Below, piece after piece: positions 9,041-20,259 of a DNA stretch of 64,000 bases. Each line of letters begins with the position of its first letter. The first letter of the stretch is position 1. Source of the stretch: a phage. The notes beneath the pieces were generated by a model. The model was not told the DNA's origin, ran no database searches, and was given only the letters and a program-made list of their open reading frames with translations. A program made the position numbers and the translations under genes. Location of the stretch: assembly GCA_021469345.1 (NCBI GenBank), contig GCA_021469345.1_3049.1; one strand, written 5' to 3'.

Positions 9041-10009
9041 ATGAAAACTGTAACTATCAATAAGGGTATCTACTTCGGTAAAGAAATCTCTGGAACTTTT
9101 GAGCTCTTAGGTGAATGGTTCCCAGATAATGCTCCGGTAGATGCACAAGGAGATGGTAAAGTTTTTGTTGAAATTGACGGTAAACGTCGCGGTGTTTGGG
9201 TTTACAAATCAGACATTTCATATGATGGTGTAAAAGTTGAAGAAGTTAAAGAATCGTATGAAGATATGAAAACCCGCATTAATAAAAGATTTAATGTTAT
9301 GGGAATGATGACGAATGGTATTATTAATGGAAATATTCGTTCATTAATTATCTCTGGCGCAGCAGGTATTGGTAAAACGTATTCTTTAGATAAAGCTTTA
9401 AATAAAGCAAATGATAATGGATACATTGAATATAAAAGCATTAATGGTAAAATCTCTGGTATCGGTCTTTATGAACAGCTCTGGAATAATCGTGAAGAGA
9501 ATTCTGTCCTTTTGATTGATGATGTGGATGTTTTCTCTGATATGGACATTCTTAATCTTCTAAAAGCCGCTCTGGACACTGGAGAGACCCGTAAAGTCTG
9601 CTGGAGCACTGCATCTTCTTACTTAGAAGAAAAAGGCATTGACCGTGAGTTTGAATTTAAAGGAACGATTGTTTTTATCACAAACGTTGACATTGACCGC
9701 GAATTAGACCGCGGTACTAAACTTGCTCCACATTTACAAGCATTAGTGTCCCGCTCAGTTTATTTGGATTTGGGTGTTCACACCAATGAAGAAATTATGG
9801 TCAGGGTTGAAGATGTTATTCTTTCAACTGACATGATGCAAAAGCGCGGTCTTTCTGATGAAGAAACTTATAAAGCATTATCATGGATGAAAGTTAATGT
9901 TAATCGTTTACGCAATGTTTCACTGCGTACTGCTCTTTATCTTGCTGACTTTATTATGACCGACAAAAATCATTGGGAAGAAATTGCTGAAACGGTATTA
10001 TTAAAATGA
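9041..10009 (+). CDS. AAA+ family ATPase
   Basis: 322 aa from ATG 9041 (RBS GGAG); Walker A GAAGIGKT, Walker B LLIDDVD, sensor-1 like FITNVD. Confidence 0.7.
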   Translation: MKTVTINKGIYFGKEISGTFELLGEWFPDNAPVDAQGDGKVFVEIDGKRRGVWVYKSDISYDGVKVEEVKESYEDMKTRINKRFNVMGMMTNGIINGNIRSLIISGAAGIGKTYSLDKALNKANDNGYIEYKSINGKISGIGLYEQLWNNREENSVLLIDDVDVFSDMDILNLLKAALDTGETRKVCWSTASSYLEEKGIDREFEFKGTIVFITNVDIDRELDRGTKLAPHLQALVSRSVYLDLGVHTNEEIMVRVEDVILSTDMMQKRGLSDEETYKALSWMKVNVNRLRNVSLRTALYLADFIMTDKNHWEEIAETVLLK

Positions 10010-10725
10010 AAAAATATTTTACTATCTATAAAACTGAAATATTAAATTTAAAGACAGGTATTAAGAAATACTATTATGGTCGACATATAACTAATAACAT
10101 CAATGATTCGTATGTTGGTAGTGGAAATTATATAGAACGTGTAAAAGTGTCAAATGACCACATATTATCAAAAACGGTTTTAGAAGTTTTTGATAATTAT
10201 GATAAAATGGTACAAGCTGAAATATTATATATCATGGCAGGTAAATTGAAATATGGAAAAAACTGTGTTAACCTGTCATACGGGGGTGAAGGAGGAAAGG
10301 TTGCAGATGAAACTAGGATAAAATGCAAAAAGCATTCTATAAATTTATGGAAAAATCCTAATCATATACAGCATATGAAGAAAAAGATGAAAGAGGTCAC
10401 ATCCACGCCGGAAGCTAAATTAAACACTTCAATAAAAACTTCGCAACGATATAAGGACCCAGTTTTTGTTAGAAAAGTTAGTAATATTATTAAAAAGAAA
10501 CTAAGCAATCCTACAGTAAAAGAAAAGCATATTAATGGAATTAAAGCTGCAAAGCGTTCTCATTTAACTATATGGCAGTATGAAGATGAATTATTCGAGC
10601 TTTGGAAAGAAACTAAATATGGATGGAGAAAATTTACAAAGGAAGCTATAAAACACGGATATCCAAATGAACCGTATCGTAGTATGGTATCAACTTTTCA
10701 GAAAAGACATTTAGAAGAATCCTAA
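10006..10725 (+). CDS. GIY-YIG family homing endonuclease (Seg-like)
   Basis: 239 aa; N-terminal YFTIYKTEILNLKTGIKKYYYGRH...YVGSG matches GIY-x10-YIG module; basic C-terminal region. Confidence 0.75.
   Translation: MKKYFTIYKTEILNLKTGIKKYYYGRHITNNINDSYVGSGNYIERVKVSNDHILSKTVLEVFDNYDKMVQAEILYIMAGKLKYGKNCVNLSYGGEGGKVADETRIKCKKHSINLWKNPNHIQHMKKKMKEVTSTPEAKLNTSIKTSQRYKDPVFVRKVSNIIKKKLSNPTVKEKHINGIKAAKRSHLTIWQYEDELFELWKETKYGWRKFTKEAIKHGYPNEPYRSMVSTFQKRHLEES
10006..10725 (+). mobile_element. free-standing homing endonuclease gene (seg-type)
   Basis: GIY-YIG ORF embedded between accessory genes, ATGA-coupled to the upstream ATPase gene. Confidence 0.55.
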
Positions 10726-11170: not shown

Positions 11171-11443
11171 ATGAACGCTAAAGATATTTTCAACCTGGTA
11201 AATTACAACGATGGTAAATTTAAATCTGAAGCACAAAGCAAGTTCTTTAATGACATCTCAATCGGAGGTGAAATCACTGTTGATGGAGGACAAATTTACA
11301 AATCCCGTTGGAATTGGATCGTTATTATCGATGAGATTGGTATTGTAGAAATTTATAAAAATACGAAAATCGTGCATTACACTGGTCTCGTGATACTAAC
11401 GAACAGTACAAAAAGGATAAAGCATCTAAATTATCTCGTGTAA
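11171..11443 (+). CDS. hypothetical protein
   Basis: 90-aa ORF, RBS GGAGGA. Confidence 0.5.
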   Translation: MNAKDIFNLVNYNDGKFKSEAQSKFFNDISIGGEITVDGGQIYKSRWNWIVIIDEIGIVEIYKNTKIVHYTGLVILTNSTKRIKHLNYLV

Positions 11444-11478
11444 CTCAAGAAGATATTGAGTTCATCAAGAAAGATATT

Positions 11479-11694
11479 TTGATGTATGATAACTTAATTG
11501 CTGAAGAGCAAGCTGTTATTGATAAATTTGATGAGATTAAAGCTTCTCGTGAAATTCCTGATTTTATGAAAGAATCAGTAAATGAACGATACACTCTCAT
11601 TTCAGAGCGTATTGAAACTTACAAAAAGCAAAGAGCTGAACGCCAAAATACTCTTCGGAAGTTTGAAGAACGGTTAAAGACGGTACTCGCATAA
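11479..11694 (+). CDS. hypothetical small protein
   Basis: 71-aa ORF. Confidence 0.45.
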   Translation: MMYDNLIAEEQAVIDKFDEIKASREIPDFMKESVNERYTLISERIETYKKQRAERQNTLRKFEERLKTVLA

Positions 11695-11749: not shown

Positions 11750-11989
11750 ATGAAACAGTTGATAATTAAAAGATTGAATTTATTGATATGTTGTTTATGT
11801 ATAGTAATTGCATATGGTTATTACGCAATTAATGATTATATGCATTATAAAGATTATGATGTTACTGTAGTTAAACCCTTACAGGAACTCAAGGAAAGGG
11901 GTCTAGTTTATCGTTTATTGCTGTATATGAACTCAAAGACGGTTATAGATTTAGCGAATATATTTCGCCAGAGATGTATTCTTCAATAG
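11750..11989 (+). CDS. small membrane protein
   Basis: 79 aa, hydrophobic N-terminus LLICCLCIVIAYGYYAI. Confidence 0.4.
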   Translation: MKQLIIKRLNLLICCLCIVIAYGYYAINDYMHYKDYDVTVVKPLQELKERGLVYRLLLYMNSKTVIDLANIFRQRCILQ

Positions 11990-12156
11990 AAAAAGGTGAT
12001 AATATTACTGTAAGTTTACGTCCTTTCGACGTAAAACAGACATTGTTTGATAATATTGTTTGGTTCTTTGGAATGGTATTAGTTCAATCTATATGTGGTG
12101 CTTATATAGTCTGTTCCATCTTATTCTGTATATTTAGTAAAATTGAAATTGAGTGA
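11974..12156 (+). CDS. small membrane protein (possibly frameshifted continuation of previous ORF)
   Basis: 60 aa, TM segment VWFFGMVLVQSICGAYIVCSILFCIF; overlaps previous ORF in another frame. Confidence 0.35.
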   Translation: MYSSIEKGDNITVSLRPFDVKQTLFDNIVWFFGMVLVQSICGAYIVCSILFCIFSKIEIE

Positions 12157-12163
12157 GGAAAAT

Positions 12164-13051
12164 ATGTCAGTAGTAATTAATAATGTCAATGCAGTAATTA
12201 AATCTTTAGTTAATAAAAAATCAAATGAATGGACTGTACTTCAACACGACGAGTCAGATAAATTTTTTCATAAATTTAACCCAGTACTAAATTTAAATGT
12301 TATTGATAAAGATGTTCACGCCGAAATTTTAGATAAGTTTAAAGTTGATATTGGATTTGGATTAGAAAAACATTTACAACGAACAAACGGGTCTGGAATG
12401 CTTTTATCTAATCGCATTATGAAAGCCCTTAATAAAATTGGAGCATTGTCTCGTATTAACGCGAGTGAAATCCTTCGTAATTATAATAAAGGATATGACC
12501 TTTATGGTCGACTAATGCCGAAATTATCATTTGACCAAATGATCGCAGATTTGTGGGAAAATCAACGACGATTATTAGCATTAGGCGCTCGATTGGCTAA
12601 AGGTCTAGATAAACAAATGATTTTTAAAACTAATAATACAGAAGACCTTAAATGCTTTAAATTTAGCACTCGTGGAGATGATTATTACGTCAGAGCTCAC
12701 TCTACAGATTATGCTAATATGGGTCATCATCTCTGTTTAGCTTTTGAAGTTTTAAAAGAAGCCGGAACATTAGAATATGTGTCTGGTGCAAAATGCCCTA
12801 TTGGTTCAAGTTGTATTTTAATTTATCGCCCGGATGAATCCAGTTCAACTAAATTGCCTACAAAACCTGTACCAGTTCGCAGTAACGAAAAACATTCTGA
12901 ACAAATTGATTATTTTAATAAGCAAATTGAAGAGCTGAATATTTCTATTCAACAATATGACGATGAAATTTTCAGACTATCTGGACTGAGTAGTAAAGCT
13001 AAATCTGAGCGTGAAAAGTTAATTAAAATTGTTGATTTACTTAAATCTTAA
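12164..13051 (+). CDS. paralog 1 of four tandem proteins with C-terminal coiled coil
   Basis: 295 aa from ATG 12164 (RBS GAGGAA); C-terminal heptad-like EELNISIQQYDDEIFRL... Confidence 0.6.
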   Translation: MSVVINNVNAVIKSLVNKKSNEWTVLQHDESDKFFHKFNPVLNLNVIDKDVHAEILDKFKVDIGFGLEKHLQRTNGSGMLLSNRIMKALNKIGALSRINASEILRNYNKGYDLYGRLMPKLSFDQMIADLWENQRRLLALGARLAKGLDKQMIFKTNNTEDLKCFKFSTRGDDYYVRAHSTDYANMGHHLCLAFEVLKEAGTLEYVSGAKCPIGSSCILIYRPDESSSTKLPTKPVPVRSNEKHSEQIDYFNKQIEELNISIQQYDDEIFRLSGLSSKAKSEREKLIKIVDLLKS

Positions 13052-13059
13052 GGAACACT

Positions 13060-14088
13060 ATGAAAACTCGTTCTCAAATTGAAGATATGGTTCGTAATGC
13101 CAGTTATACTCGTGATGTTATGACATTTTTGTGTGAAAATAATTTAGACCCTGATAAAGTTAATCGTGTTATTCATCACTTTAAGTATACGAATAGCAGT
13201 GAATGGGTGCGTAATTTTAGTAAAGCAGGGTATATTACACAAATGACTGCTCGTGAACAGCTCACCGATTTCTGTAAAACTATTGATTATAAAAATCCTT
13301 TGATTGTTCAAGGCGTTGGTCAGAGTAAGGTTGATTTATCAACAGGATTTTTTAATCCAAATCATTATCGTCTTGAATGGAGATTTATTGCTCTATTCCG
13401 TAAACAATTAAAGCAAATTTTGTCTACTGCTAGTCGATTAAAAGGTTCTGATATTAACTTAAAGAATCTGAAATTTGATGGTTATACTCTTCAGATGGAA
13501 GTAAGACCGTTAAAAGAAAATAATAGAACTGCACGAATTAGCTTTAAGCCTAATACAAAAAATTCTCTTTCAATTTGTGAATGCCTTAAATCACAGTTGA
13601 CAGAAGCATTTAAGTATATGGATGTTGTTGCTGCTGTTCAATCTAAGATTTTACCTCGTTTTGAGCGAAATTGGGAACATACAACAACGTATGAACTTGA
13701 TATGATCGTTTCATTTAAATACGATTTTTTGAGAAAGGACGAAGTCACGCAAGAGAAAAAGCAGGAAGTACAAGATAACTTAAATTTAAATTTATCTAAT
13801 TACTTATCAAACGATCCTAAATTTTGGATGTATAGTTCAGGTAATAAAGATGCATGGAAATTCAATAAAGTGAATTTTCTTCCTATTGAAAATCCGAGTC
13901 TTAAACCTGTTGAAAAATGGCACGCGGATGCGATTGAGAAGTCCCTTAAGGCAGTAGATGATGAACTCGTTAAAGCGACCAATGAAGTGCTAAAAGCTGA
14001 AAAGGTGTTAGAACAAGCTCAGTCAAGGGTTCAAAATCTGACAAAGCAACGTTCTAAACTGAACAATGCACTAAATGCACTAAACTAG
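13060..14088 (+). CDS. paralog 2 of four tandem proteins with C-terminal coiled coil
   Basis: 342 aa; FRKQLKQILSTASRLKG resembles FRSFTKQILKSASKLCYG of the next gene. Confidence 0.6.
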   Translation: MKTRSQIEDMVRNASYTRDVMTFLCENNLDPDKVNRVIHHFKYTNSSEWVRNFSKAGYITQMTAREQLTDFCKTIDYKNPLIVQGVGQSKVDLSTGFFNPNHYRLEWRFIALFRKQLKQILSTASRLKGSDINLKNLKFDGYTLQMEVRPLKENNRTARISFKPNTKNSLSICECLKSQLTEAFKYMDVVAAVQSKILPRFERNWEHTTTYELDMIVSFKYDFLRKDEVTQEKKQEVQDNLNLNLSNYLSNDPKFWMYSSGNKDAWKFNKVNFLPIENPSLKPVEKWHADAIEKSLKAVDDELVKATNEVLKAEKVLEQAQSRVQNLTKQRSKLNNALNALN

Positions 14089-14117
14089 TTTACTTTGCCA
14101 CAAGGATGTGGTATAAT
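14088..14117 (+). promoter_or_regulatory. early promoter (GTTTAC-N18-TGGTATAAT)
   Basis: GTTTAC 14088-14093, TATAAT 14112-14117; near-identical to the promoter at 59522. Confidence 0.6.
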
Positions 14118-14145
14118 GTTCTTACTTTCTACTGAGGAGATTAAT

Positions 14146-15147
14146 ATGACTCGTAACGAATATATCAAATCATTCAATAGAGTTATTGATGATAAAGCTA
14201 TACCGATGTTTGGCCAAAATAGCGTTCTTTCTATTATCAATCAATGGCTCAATAGTGTTGATGCAGGTATTGTTTCTTCTACTAAATTTATTCATGAAAT
14301 TCGTAAAATTTCTAGCCGTGTAGATAAAGATCTTATCAAGAAAACCTTTAAAGAGTCTCGTCTTCTTTCATATTTGGTTAATCGGGATATTCTTGGTAAT
14401 TTTGGGAAAGAAATTAAACGAACCAAAGATGTAGTAGGATACAATTGGTTCGGTGATGTTAATACTTATCATCTTAATACTAAAGAAGACCCTGAGAATA
14501 TTTTTACTCGTCGTTGGGTTAGTGAATTTAGGAGTTTTACGAAGCAAATTCTAAAATCAGCTTCTAAATTATGTTATGGCGATTATCGTCAAATTCATCC
14601 TTTAGCTGATGATATGATTATAGCAGAAGAATATGAACTTGATAAAAACAAAGTAGCTATTTTTATTAATTACAGATTTTTTACACCAGAAACTAACCAA
14701 AAGAACATTAATAAATTTTTCTCAATTGCTAGCACTATAACTCGTCAATTAGAGACCGCATTACTTTGTATGGAAACAGTAGAAAATATTCATACTTATC
14801 CTTTTAAGAATATATGCGGTTGGGAAGGATATAAACTCGTAATTAGCCTTCGTGAAGTGAAATGTGCTTATTCACCTACTGATAAAGAAATTTACCAACA
14901 AAAATGCGAAGAAATTGTGAATACTCCTAAAGAAGAAACTACCCTTGAGGAACTAATGGAATGTCTTGATGATTCGCCTGAACCGGTAGAAATTCGTCCA
15001 GAAGTTATTGCATTAGAAAAAGCTTATAAAGAAGCTCTAGAAATTTCTAATAAAGCACAGAAAGAATATGAGAAGGCTAAAAGGATTTGGGAAGAATCTG
15101 TCAATCGCTTGGATCGTCTTGAACAAGCTTTACAATTAATTAAGTAA
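14146..15147 (+). CDS. paralog 3 of four tandem proteins with C-terminal coiled coil
   Basis: 333 aa from ATG 14146 (RBS GAGGAG). Confidence 0.6.
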   Translation: MTRNEYIKSFNRVIDDKAIPMFGQNSVLSIINQWLNSVDAGIVSSTKFIHEIRKISSRVDKDLIKKTFKESRLLSYLVNRDILGNFGKEIKRTKDVVGYNWFGDVNTYHLNTKEDPENIFTRRWVSEFRSFTKQILKSASKLCYGDYRQIHPLADDMIIAEEYELDKNKVAIFINYRFFTPETNQKNINKFFSIASTITRQLETALLCMETVENIHTYPFKNICGWEGYKLVISLREVKCAYSPTDKEIYQQKCEEIVNTPKEETTLEELMECLDDSPEPVEIRPEVIALEKAYKEALEISNKAQKEYEKAKRIWEESVNRLDRLEQALQLIK

Positions 15148-15199
15148 TTTAAAGCCAAGGATGGCTCGGAGTATAAACTATTAACCAAGTGAGAAGAAC

Positions 15200-16132
15200 A
15201 TGAAAACTCGTAAACATTATATTGATTATTTTGACAGTCTTATTACTAAACACCGTAATTATCAGATCGGGCACAGAGCAGTAATCAATAATATTCTTCG
15301 TGATTTCCTTCAATATGTTGGTCAGGAAAATCATATCTGTAAAGATACTCAAAACGCTTATTCTCATTCGTTAGGCAATTTGCTTGAATGGTTTAAACGT
15401 TCTCGTATGTTATCTTCTACTGTAGCTCGTGATAACATTAAAAACTTTATGAAACCGAGCTTTATTAAATCTGTGACATCTAAAACCGATTTGGTTGAAT
15501 TTACTATTATTAACGATGTTAAAAAGACTCATTTAGCTGATTGGTTATCTACCATTCCTGAAACTAAATTTGCTGATAAATTTGCTTGTGAATTCAATAA
15601 ACAAGTTAATATGCTTTTTAAACATTCATGTAAATTATTCACAGGCGGCGATGATCGTACAAATAAAGTTCATGTTAAAGATTGGGTTACTGCAGTGTTC
15701 AAACCAACTGGTAATGGTAACGCATCATTATCAATTGATATCCAGGTTCCTTATTACTACTCACGTAATCTCGGTACTATGAAAGCCGAAGAAATTAATA
15801 AGCGCAACAAAACCGTTCGTTCTCTGTCTTATAAACTTCGCATGATGTTACAGACTATGGATGTTGTTGAAATGTTCGACGAAACCGAAGATAACGGTTC
15901 AATGTTATATAGTTCTCGTACCCGAATTAAGTTGAAGAACCCTAACGAGTATAAACTTAAGACTATTAAAGAACCTAAAGTAGAAAAGGTTGATAACTTG
16001 AGCGAAGAACGTGAATATCTCAATTCTCGTTTGATTGAAGTTGAAGCCCAAATTGCAGAACACACCAAATTGTTAAAAGCTCTTAATGCAAAAGCAAATG
16101 GTTTACGTAATGCTATTGAGGTATTGAAATGA
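15200..16132 (+). CDS. paralog 4 of four tandem proteins with C-terminal coiled coil
   Basis: 310 aa; C-terminal [42 protein letters not shown]. Confidence 0.6.
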   Translation: MKTRKHYIDYFDSLITKHRNYQIGHRAVINNILRDFLQYVGQENHICKDTQNAYSHSLGNLLEWFKRSRMLSSTVARDNIKNFMKPSFIKSVTSKTDLVEFTIINDVKKTHLADWLSTIPETKFADKFACEFNKQVNMLFKHSCKLFTGGDDRTNKVHVKDWVTAVFKPTGNGNASLSIDIQVPYYYSRNLGTMKAEEINKRNKTVRSLSYKLRMMLQTMDVVEMFDETEDNGSMLYSSRTRIKLKNPNEYKLKTIKEPKVEKVDNLSEEREYLNSRLIEVEAQIAEHTKLLKALNAKANGLRNAIEVLK

Positions 16133-17971: not shown

Positions 17972-18445
17972 ATGTTATTGACTGGCAAATTATATAAAGA
18001 AGAAAAACAGAAATTTTATGATGCACAAAATGGTAAATGCTTAATTTGCCAACGAGAACTAAATCCTGACGTTCAAGCTAATCACCTCGACCATGACCAT
18101 GAATTAAATGGACCAAAAGCAGGAAAGGTGCGTGGATTGCTTTGTAATCTCTGCAATGCCGCAGAAGGTCAAATGAAGCATAAATTTAATCGTTCTGGCT
18201 TAAAGGGACAAGGTGTTGATTATCTTGAATGGTTAGAAAATTTACTTACTTATTTAAAATCCGATTACACCCAAAATAATATTCACCCTAACTTCGTTGG
18301 AGATAAATCAAAGGAATTTTCTCGTTTAGGAAAAGAGGAAATGATGGCTGAGATGCTTCAAAGAGGATTTGAATATAATGAATCTGACACCAAAACACAA
18401 TTAATAGCTTCATTTAAGAAGCAGCTTAGAAAGAGTTTAAAATGA
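17972..18445 (+). CDS. 49: endonuclease VII (Holliday junction resolvase)
   Basis: 157 aa; Cys cluster CLICQ...C...CNLCN; matches remembered T4 gp49. Confidence 0.95.
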   Translation: MLLTGKLYKEEKQKFYDAQNGKCLICQRELNPDVQANHLDHDHELNGPKAGKVRGLLCNLCNAAEGQMKHKFNRSGLKGQGVDYLEWLENLLTYLKSDYTQNNIHPNFVGDKSKEFSRLGKEEMMAEMLQRGFEYNESDTKTQLIASFKKQLRKSLK

Positions 18446-20259
18446 CAATTGAAAAAGAAATTGAAGGATTGATTCATAAAACTAATAAAGACCTTTTAAA
18501 CGAGAATGCTAATAAAGATTCTCGTGTTTTTCCAACTCAACGGGACCTTATGGCTGGTATTGTGTCTAAACACATTGCCAAAAATATGGTCCCGTCTTTT
18601 ATTATGAAAGCACATGAAAGCGGAATTATCCATTTCCACGATATTGATTATTCCCCTGCTCTTCCATTTACTAATTGTTGTTTAGTAGATTTAAAAGGAA
18701 TGCTTGAGAACGGGTTTAAGCTCGGTAATGCACAGATTGAAACTCCTAAATCAATTGGCGTTGCTACTGCAATTATGACACAAATTACTGCACAGGTTGC
18801 TTCCCATCAATACGGCGGAACGACTTTTGCTAATGTAGATAAAGTACTTTCTCCTTATGTTAAACGCACCTATGCAAAACATATTGAGGATGCAGAAAAA
18901 TGGCAAATCGCTGATGCGTTGAATTATGCTCAATCTAAAACAGAAAAAGACGTATACGATGCATTCCAAGCTTATGAATATGAAGTAAATACTCTCTTTA
19001 GTTCAAACGGACAAACGCCTTTTGTAACAATTACATTTGGTACGGGAACTGACTGGACTGAACGAATGATTCAGAAAGCAATTCTGAAAAATCGTATTAA
19101 AGGCCTTGGTCGCGATGGGATAACTCCTATTTTCCCTAAGCTTGTTATGTTCGTTGAAGAAGGTGTTAATCTTTATAAAGACGATCCAAACTATGATATT
19201 AAGCAGCTTGCTCTAGAGTGTGCAAGCAAAAGGATGTATCCTGATATTATTTCAGCTAAGAACAATAAAGCTATCACTGGTTCATCTATTCCTGTTTCTC
19301 CGATGGGATGCCGTAGTTTCTTGAGCGTATGGAAAGATTCGACTGGTAATGAAATTCTTGATGGACGTAATAATCTTGGTGTTGTAACATTGAATCTTCC
19401 TCGCATCGCGTTAGATTCTTATATTGGAACACAGTTCAATGAACAGAAATTTATCGAATTGTTTAATGAACGAATGGATTTATGTTTTGAAGCTTTGATG
19501 TGTAGAATTAGTTCCTTAAAAGGAGTTAAAGCGACTGTTGCTCCTATTCTTTACCAAGAAGGTGCATTCGGGGTTCGTCTTAAACCTGATGACGACATAA
19601 TTGAGTTATTTAAAAACGGTAGAAGTTCAGTGTCCCTAGGATACATTGGTATTCACGAATTGAATATTCTTGTCGGTCGTGATATTGGACGAGAAATTTT
19701 AACTAAAATGAATGCTCATCTTAAACAGTGGACTGAAAGAACTGGGTTTGCTTTTAGTTTGTATTCTACTCCTGCTGAAAACCTGTGCTATCGCTTCTGT
19801 AAACTTGATACCGAAAAATATGGAAGTGTAAAAGATGTTACCGATAAAGGCTGGTACACTAACAGTTTCCATGTTTCAGTAGAAGAAAATATCACTCCAT
19901 TTGAAAAGATTTCTCGCGAAGCACCGTATCATTTCATTGCAACAGGCGGTCACATTTCTTATGTTGAACTTCCTGATATGAAAAATAACCTAAAAGGTCT
20001 TGAGGCTGTATGGGATTATGCTGCACAACATTTAGATTATTTTGGTGTTAACATGCCGGTAGATAAGTGTTTTACGTGCGGAAGTACTCATGAAATGACT
20101 CCTACTGAAAATGGATTTGTTTGTTCTATCTGTGGAGAAACTGATCCTAAAAAGATGAACACAATAAGAAGAACATGTGGTTATTTGGGAAATCCGAACG
20201 AACGCGGATTTAATCTCGGCAAAAATAAAGAAATCATGCATAGGGTTAAACACCAATGA
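18442..20259 (+). CDS. nrdD: anaerobic ribonucleoside-triphosphate reductase, uninterrupted
   Basis: 605-aa continuous ORF; C-terminal Cys-rich tail and glycyl-radical region; no intron insertion. Confidence 0.95.
   Translation: MTIEKEIEGLIHKTNKDLLNENANKDSRVFPTQRDLMAGIVSKHIAKNMVPSFIMKAHESGIIHFHDIDYSPALPFTNCCLVDLKGMLENGFKLGNAQIETPKSIGVATAIMTQITAQVASHQYGGTTFANVDKVLSPYVKRTYAKHIEDAEKWQIADALNYAQSKTEKDVYDAFQAYEYEVNTLFSSNGQTPFVTITFGTGTDWTERMIQKAILKNRIKGLGRDGITPIFPKLVMFVEEGVNLYKDDPNYDIKQLALECASKRMYPDIISAKNNKAITGSSIPVSPMGCRSFLSVWKDSTGNEILDGRNNLGVVTLNLPRIALDSYIGTQFNEQKFIELFNERMDLCFEALMCRISSLKGVKATVAPILYQEGAFGVRLKPDDDIIELFKNGRSSVSLGYIGIHELNILVGRDIGREILTKMNAHLKQWTERTGFAFSLYSTPAENLCYRFCKLDTEKYGSVKDVTDKGWYTNSFHVSVEENITPFEKISREAPYHFIATGGHISYVELPDMKNNLKGLEAVWDYAAQHLDYFGVNMPVDKCFTCGSTHEMTPTENGFVCSICGETDPKKMNTIRRTCGYLGNPNERGFNLGKNKEIMHRVKHQ

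Follow-up and report, generated by a model that had tools for sequence, protein, structure and literature searches.

The subject of this work is a tandem array of four genes in the phage stretch GCA_021469345.1_3049.1, the whole 64,000 nt of which we call the window and which comes from a T4-like phage (Tequatrovirus). Four open reading frames (ORFs), named P1 to P4 in 5′→3′ order, lie head to tail on the + strand within 12164-16132. By sequence and synteny, they are the orthologs of T4 nrdC.6, nrdC.5, nrdC.4 and nrdC.3, whose families are referred to as C6, C5, C4 and C3, respectively. The gene order is kept: nrdC.7-like, C6, C5, C4, C3, nrdC.2, nrdC.1 and nrdC.

12164-13051, + strand: P1, 295 amino acids; T4 nrdC.6 ortholog; PHROG 2257; homologs with PF26899
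13060-14088, + strand: P2, 342 amino acids; T4 nrdC.5 ortholog; Pfam DUF7235 (PF23882)
14146-15147, + strand: P3, 333 amino acids; T4 nrdC.4 ortholog; PHROG 1435; homologs with PF26897
15200-16132, + strand: P4, 310 amino acids; T4 nrdC.3 ortholog; PHROG 1435; divergent allele

The array genes are known T4 ORFs, one of them with a published role, and in this respect the novelty is modest. T4 is the best-studied phage, yet three of the four genes have no assigned function, and T4 nrdC.3, nrdC.4 and nrdC.6, the counterparts of P4, P3 and P1, stand as hypothetical proteins. What is new here is the homology of all four, the architecture they seem to share, a possible terminator-like core and a catalogue of natural chimeras and deletions.

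P2 is 95% identical in amino acids to T4 NrdC.5, sits at the equivalent position between nrdC.6 and nrdC.4, and matches DUF7235 along residues 1-342 (E = 8.1e-128; 426.6 bits, with a cut-off of 30); P1, P3 and P4 give no match to it. In PHROGs, P3 and P4 fall into a single family, 1435 (E = 3e-165 and 1e-111), and P1 and P2 each into separate families (PHROG 2257 for P1, E = 2.5e-150). PF26899 is carried by 105 of 105 P1 homologs and PF26897 by 64 of 64 P3 homologs. Beyond DUF7235 in P2, searches of Pfam, NCBIfam and PADLOC returned nothing for the four proteins apart from sub-cut-off coiled-coil noise, and no enzyme family was matched; nor did sequence-profile searches of the PDB find a solved relative. 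The N-terminus of P4 was considered as a tyrosine-recombinase SAM-like DNA-binding domain and rejected, its matches (Pfam E = 0.09, NCBIfam E = 0.002) being far below curated thresholds.

Existing product names are of little help. In GenBank, the nrdC.3-nrdC.11 genes of relatives are widely labelled "thioredoxin", a label with no profile evidence behind it; none of P1-P4 matches the thioredoxin family in Pfam or NCBIfam, and for the array genes the name seems to have spread from the neighbouring nrdC. The T6 record AP018814 lists nrdC.3-nrdC.11 under unrelated structural names, e.g., "tail sheath stabilizer", likewise with no profile support.

Homology and architecture of the four proteins

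The initial annotation had seen four consecutive divergent paralogs here, and had named profile searches, structure prediction and copy number across relatives among the ways to check this. Identities between paralogs are below about 26% and the relationship needs profiles: BLASTP among the four proteins found P3-P4 only, plus a weak colinear match between P2 and P3. We aligned each family, drawing on database homologs and on the loci of other genera, and compared the alignments by hhalign. C4 and C3 are joined with a probability of 97.9% (E = 3.6e-13), and C5 and C4 with 91.9% (E = 6.9e-7), the latter over ~250 columns reaching the extreme C-terminus. Searched exhaustively by HMMER with the C4 profile, 1.84 billion representatives yielded 7 proteins, none of them a distant annotated relative; an nrdC.3 representative (E = 1.3e-7) was among the 7.

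P1 is the most difficult member to place. Compared family by family, C6 gave no significant hhalign match (best P = 0.004), and secondary structure taken from AlphaFold2 (AF2) was no help. When C6 was compared with a profile into which C5, C4, C3 and three remote members had been merged, the probability rose to 94.9% (E = 4.4e-8), while reversed-alignment controls of the merged-profile comparison gave P of 0.2-0.8, the reversed C6 control standing at P = 0.32. The alignment pairs the most conserved motifs of both sides, i.e., LSRxNAxEILxNYxKG, YDLYGR and NQRRLLALGARLAKG in C6 with SRLLSxLVxxDILxxFGK and FxxxxKxILKSAxKL in the others. Judged by their profiles, all four proteins, from 295 to 342 amino acids long, are homologous and belong to one superfamily, C6 joining by way of the merged profile. 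Each has a core helix motif at a similar place, between residues 113 and 150, and the two motifs quoted initially, those of P2 and P3, are real:

12560-12604, + strand: P1 core helix motif, NQRRLLALGARLAKG; invariant in the C6 family and aligned by hhalign with the P3 motif
13396-13446, + strand: P2 core helix motif, FRKQLKQILSTASRLKG; residues 113-129
14527-14580, + strand: P3 core helix motif, FRSFTKQILKSASKLCYG; residues 128-145, with a model helix at 132-142
15593-15649, + strand: P4 core helix motif, FNKQVNMLFKHSCKLFTGG

AF2 models of P1 and P3 (predicted local distance difference test scores of 78 and 82) agree with the profiles. Their N-terminal helical regions differ; from there on the order of elements is the same in both, with a pair of helices, then a long helix between two beta-hairpins, and finally a low-confidence linker leading to a long C-terminal helix. 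Searched with Foldseek against BFVD, the two models match the same uncharacterised proteins of 300-370 amino acids (E from 1e-7 to 3e-2), from T4-like phages of Enterobacter, Pectobacterium, Acinetobacter, Klebsiella, Yersinia and Serratia, and the P3 model additionally matches an nrdC.3 protein. As modelled for P1 and P3, the members of the family would be built alike: a helical N-terminal region that varies, an alpha/beta core that is conserved, a disordered linker and, at the C-terminus, a conserved amphipathic helix.

The C-terminal helices are located as follows:

12887-13048, + strand: P1 C-terminal helical region, amino acids 242-295; two helices broken at Gly
13921-14085, + strand: P2 C-terminal amphipathic helix, amino acids 288-342; clean 3-4 heptad spacing
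14998-15144, + strand: P3 C-terminal helix, amino acids 285-333; one 48-residue helix in the model
15986-16129, + strand: P4 C-terminal amphipathic helix, amino acids 263-310

A simple heptad score peaks at the C-terminus of each protein. Hydrophobic periodicity over at least 4 heptads is strong in P2, P4 and P3 and weak in P1; shuffled sequences reached the observed score in 0, 1, 4 and 13 cases of 200, respectively. Ranked by C-terminal heptad score among the 65 non-nested + strand ORFs of at least 100 amino acids, the four take ranks 1, 2, 3 and 5, which for four named ORFs has a chance of ~7e-6. The claim that all four end in a heptad-like helix rich in E, K, L, A and N is upheld; P1 is the weakest case, where the signal is weak, the helix is interrupted (H242-271 and H277-294 in the AF2 model, compared to a single H285-332 in P3) and those residues are not enriched. 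Even so, a terminal motif, hxxhLxxA(L/I)xxL(K/N), is found in all four proteins and also in the remote members. That the helices form coiled coils, and associate with each other, is a prediction.

The helix is not the diverging part of the proteins. Within families, conservation is higher over the last 50 amino acids than over the remainder (0.61 vs. 0.41, 0.65 vs. 0.43, 0.74 vs. 0.62 and 0.40 vs. 0.29), and the metagenomic protein P0121 has a C4-type helix of 78% identity on a body of 28%. Hidden Markov models (HMMs) made from the C-terminal helix only did not detect the other paralogs, and for this reason the helices cannot be called homologous on their own.

The reference T4 genome differs at this point. 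Its nrdC.6 (NC_000866, 10067-10894, minus strand) lacks 1 nt that the window and T6 have; the frameshift removes the helix and leaves 275 amino acids instead of 295, although the coding sequence of the helix persists downstream in another frame. P1 keeps its C-terminal helix, and in the T4T record the nrdC.6 match covers the full 295 amino acids.

Distribution, divergence and rearrangement of the array

The 4.2-kb array region matches 657 phage records, with a top nucleotide identity of 94.5%, and among 50,697 phage records the proteins are present in 742 (P1), 582 (P2), 554 (P3) and 654 (P4). C6-like, C5-like and C3-like genes are present in Mosigvirus LF82-5; in Gaprivervirus and Dhakavirus, C6 and C4 are accompanied by a highly divergent C5 (23-27% identity). 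A single relative with the same tail adjoins nrdC in Moonvirus CF1 (hhalign against C5, P = 5e-4) and in Klebsiella phage Roth34 (against C4, P = 7e-4), and another single relative lies directly upstream of nrdC in Acinetobacter phage AB-Navy71 (against C5, P = 2e-4). This distribution across genera indicates that the family is old in Straboviridae and that the array of three to four genes is an expansion within Tevenvirinae. Other candidates were discarded. The 262-amino-acid neighbours in CF1 and Roth34, HK6_315 and two of the three Acinetobacter candidates showed no relationship to the family, and HK6_316 has a heptad-like tail but its profile match is not significant.

Duplication followed by rapid divergence had been the initial explanation for the array. 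The duplication is not recent, since Mosigvirus, Dhakavirus and Gaprivervirus have orthologs specific to each position, for C6, for C5 and for either C4 or C3. Divergence, on the other hand, is indeed raised: the ratio of nonsynonymous to synonymous substitution rates (dN/dS) is 0.16-0.43 for the P1-P4 genes, compared with 0-0.15 in eight flanking comparisons. The array genes evolve faster than their neighbours and are still under purifying selection; positive selection is not shown, as dN/dS remains well below 1.

P4 has a history of its own. It is 64% identical to nrdC.3 of T4 and T6, with a synonymous divergence (dS) of ~1.1 where neighbouring genes have ~0.1-0.25, and 85% identical to the copy of Mosigvirus LF82-5 (locus L004, 4998-5948). 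The higher identity to Mosigvirus than to T4 and T6 points to an allele replacement, and suggests that nrdC.3 has been exchanged between genera.

Natural rearrangements show that the array genes are dispensable in nature and recombine with one another. In phage ACG-C40 (locus L003, 5805-6216), a deletion runs from early nrdC.5 to late nrdC.3, leaving a 71-amino-acid nrdC.5 stub and the last ~73 codons of nrdC.3, with nrdC.4 absent. Salmonella phage Manna (locus L007, 5215-6252) has lost nrdC.5 and carries an in-frame chimera of nrdC.6 (residues 1-269) and nrdC.4 (residues 251-333), whose junction is a 9-nt identity, GATGAAATT, encoding a DEI motif found in both parents. The protein P0056 joins nrdC.5 residues 146-274 to nrdC.3 residues 129-310, and P0122 from Shigella phage Sf25 (378 amino acids) is an nrdC.6 with an internal tandem duplication of 83 residues, 176-258. 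The array is old, plastic and fast-evolving.

Proposed role against host defences

The functional evidence comes from T4. A T4 deletion mutant is unable to plate on Escherichia coli ECOR17 or on MG1655 carrying ECOR17 dsr1, and nrdC.5 alone rescues it (Srikant, Guegler & Laub 2022, eLife, PMC9391042). Dsr1 is a SIR2 NADase with a TPR sensor reportedly triggered by the major capsid protein, and a different sensor family, Avs15, reportedly by tail terminators (2026 preprint, PMC12803255). The initial annotation had guessed at an anti-defence or host-takeover role for the array. The anti-defence guess is partly supported. It is borne out as far as P2 is concerned, its T4 ortholog counteracting Dsr1 in trans (PMC9391042); for P2 itself, the activity is predicted from its orthology to the T4 protein, and for P1, P3 and P4 such a role is conjectural. 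The T4 study offers no mechanism, nor does it treat nrdC.3, nrdC.4 and nrdC.6 as paralogs (PMC9391042), and the literature searched yielded neither a mechanism for NrdC.5 nor anything on the other three genes or on the Pfam accessions.

We hypothesize, with moderate confidence, that P1-P4 are an old tandem family of early accessory proteins that act as stoichiometric inhibitors of host immune proteins, one target per paralog. The proteins would be made early, be non-enzymatic and act by binding; a binding protein fits better than an enzyme because no enzyme domain or catalytic family was matched. P2 would be made before the capsid protein appears and could bind Dsr1 directly, at its sensor or SIR2 domain, thereby blocking NAD+ depletion, a step modelled on DSAD1 and DSR2. 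The conserved core and C-terminal helix may provide a scaffold or an oligomer, giving avidity, while the variable N-terminal and linker surfaces would set target specificity. P1, P3 and P4 would do the equivalent job against other host defences.

DSAD1 of an SPbeta-type phage is reported to inhibit the SIR2 NADase DSR2 by binding, and the likeness is that of a phage protein neutralising a defence-associated sirtuin; DSR2 is triggered by tail tube, whereas Dsr1, the proposed target of NrdC.5, is triggered by capsid, and the two inhibitors, whose architectures are not known to match, are likened by role. The anti-defence clusters of T-even phages (dmd-tifA-adfA, the "anti-TA island") are likewise clustered, non-essential, early, host-range-extending and readily lost or amplified. 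Their genes are mutually unrelated, whereas the nrdC.3-6 array is made of paralogs.

Several points weigh against this proposal. Experimental support exists for one of the four members, T4 NrdC.5, and is genetic. Direct binding of Dsr1, oligomerisation through the helices and the roles of P1, P3 and P4 are inferred. An arms race is suggested rather than demonstrated, with dN/dS below 1 everywhere. The heptad signal of P1 is the weak one noted above (13 of 200 shuffles), and T4 reference nrdC.6 has lost its C-terminal helix; therefore, that gene or its helix is dispensable, at least in the laboratory.

Alternatively, the nrdC.5 lineage, here P2, would be the only immune inhibitor, the other three having diverged to unrelated early functions such as regulation of macromolecular machinery or nucleic acid binding, and the array would be a record of historical duplication. 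We regard this as unlikely. The lack of data for nrdC.3, nrdC.4 and nrdC.6 in the literature searched is in its favour, as are paralog identities so low that profiles are required and the SAM-like recombinase matches at the P4 N-terminus, weak and sub-threshold as they are. However, those matches lie far below the curated cut-offs; all four genes behave as accessory genes, with variable presence, chimeras and raised dN/dS; and the Manna fusion of C6 and C4, in frame and functional-looking, suggests that the modules are interchangeable.

It is also conceivable, and in our view rather improbable, that the action is indirect: the proteins might shield or chaperone the trigger (the major capsid protein or another part of the virion), or else change the physiology or the NAD+ metabolism of the host, such that Dsr1-type sensors stay inactive or their effect is buffered. 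The reported triggering of Dsr1 by the major capsid protein would suit such a mechanism, NAD+-restoring counter-defences against DSR1 exist in other phages, and the genetic result for NrdC.5 does not separate direct from indirect effects. Yet P1-P4 bear no likeness to enzyme families or NAD+ pathway proteins, NrdC.5 is early while the capsid protein is late, and it seems implausible that an early accessory protein would chaperone, in stoichiometric amounts, the late protein made in the greatest abundance.

A more speculative possibility, to which we give little credence, concerns the origin of the core. The core of the family is possibly tail-terminator-like, the proteins to compare it with being tail terminator and completion proteins (lambda gpU, T5 p142, SPP1 gp17-like, Mu and R2 pyocin collar). 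If so, a tail-terminator-like domain might have been exapted from a virion protein to serve as an early decoy: it would fill, and not activate, the sensors with which host pattern-recognition proteins (Dsr1, Avs-type STANDs) recognise the shape of conserved virion folds; the four paralogs may then form a multi-specific hub via their C-terminal helices and cover different sensors. P1-P4 have no Pfam or PHROG match to tail families and, unlike tail terminators, they lie outside the tail module, among the early genes around nrdC, where there is an early-type promoter-like site. Such fold mimicry, with the phage imitating late proteins of its own, would if true amount to a new principle of counter-defence and give a reason for keeping the genes as an array.

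That P1 is merely an unrelated protein with a chance amphipathic tail, leaving a true array of three, is most improbable: pairwise BLAST with nothing significant for P1, the non-significant family-by-family hhalign comparison (secondary structure included) and helix-only HMMs that do not detect one another would fit it, but the merged-profile match covers the most conserved motifs and vanishes on reversal, the P1 and P3 models share their element order and their BFVD matches (E from 1e-7 to 1e-3), and Manna joins C6 and C4 at a DEI motif common to both.

Membership of one family with T4 NrdC.5, which counteracts a sirtuin-type immune protein, makes nrdC.3, nrdC.4 and nrdC.6 concrete anti-defence candidates. 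The conserved core motif, the variable N-terminal region and the C-terminal helix are the parts to mutate, and the natural chimeras and deletions are ready-made domain swaps, which could map host-range specificity in therapeutic T4-like phages.

Expression signals and neighbouring genes

The mechanical ORF list allows earlier TTG starts for P1 and P3; we favour the ATG starts of the initial annotation because the PHROG matches begin at residues 8 and 18 of the longer TTG ORFs. Two of the array genes had been credited with an early promoter or a strong ribosome-binding site of their own. Shine-Dalgarno-like sequences are found upstream of all four genes, and one promoter-like site precedes P3:

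14089-14117, + strand: strong sigma-70-like early-type promoter-like site, GTTTAC-17-TGgTATAAT with a TG-extended TATAAT, in the 57-nt gap before P3; a consensus match alone

An annotated promoter occupies the equivalent position in phage Lutter. Overall, promoter-like sites are not enriched (28 found, 27.5 expected from shuffles), and terminator counts show no excess over shuffles either. The site before P3 is the only individually convincing candidate promoter, by its match to the consensus.

Small hairpins with an AGGA loop occur in both gaps, at 14096-14113 before P3 (GCCAcA-AGGA-UGuGG) and at 15153-15166 before P4 (GCCA-AGGA-UGGC), their folding not being significantly better than that of shuffles. 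The first lies within the spacer of the promoter-like site.

Just upstream of the array, the nrdC.8 and nrdC.7 homologs (11171-11694 and 11750-12156) are each split into two ORFs. Compared to T4, nrdC.8 of the window lacks 4 nt and nrdC.7 lacks 1 nt, and the split genes are either pseudogenes or sequencing errors. Further upstream, between the nrdC.10 and nrdC.9 homologs, lies an ORF of 239 amino acids (10006-10725) that shares 99.6% identity with T6 EcT6_00092 and has no counterpart at this place in T4. From its N-terminus (YIYK...YYGR...YVGSG), it may be a Seg-type GIY-YIG homing endonuclease. On the other side of the array, nrdD (18442-20259) is one uninterrupted ORF of 605 amino acids, whereas T4 nrdD is split by a group I intron carrying I-TevII.

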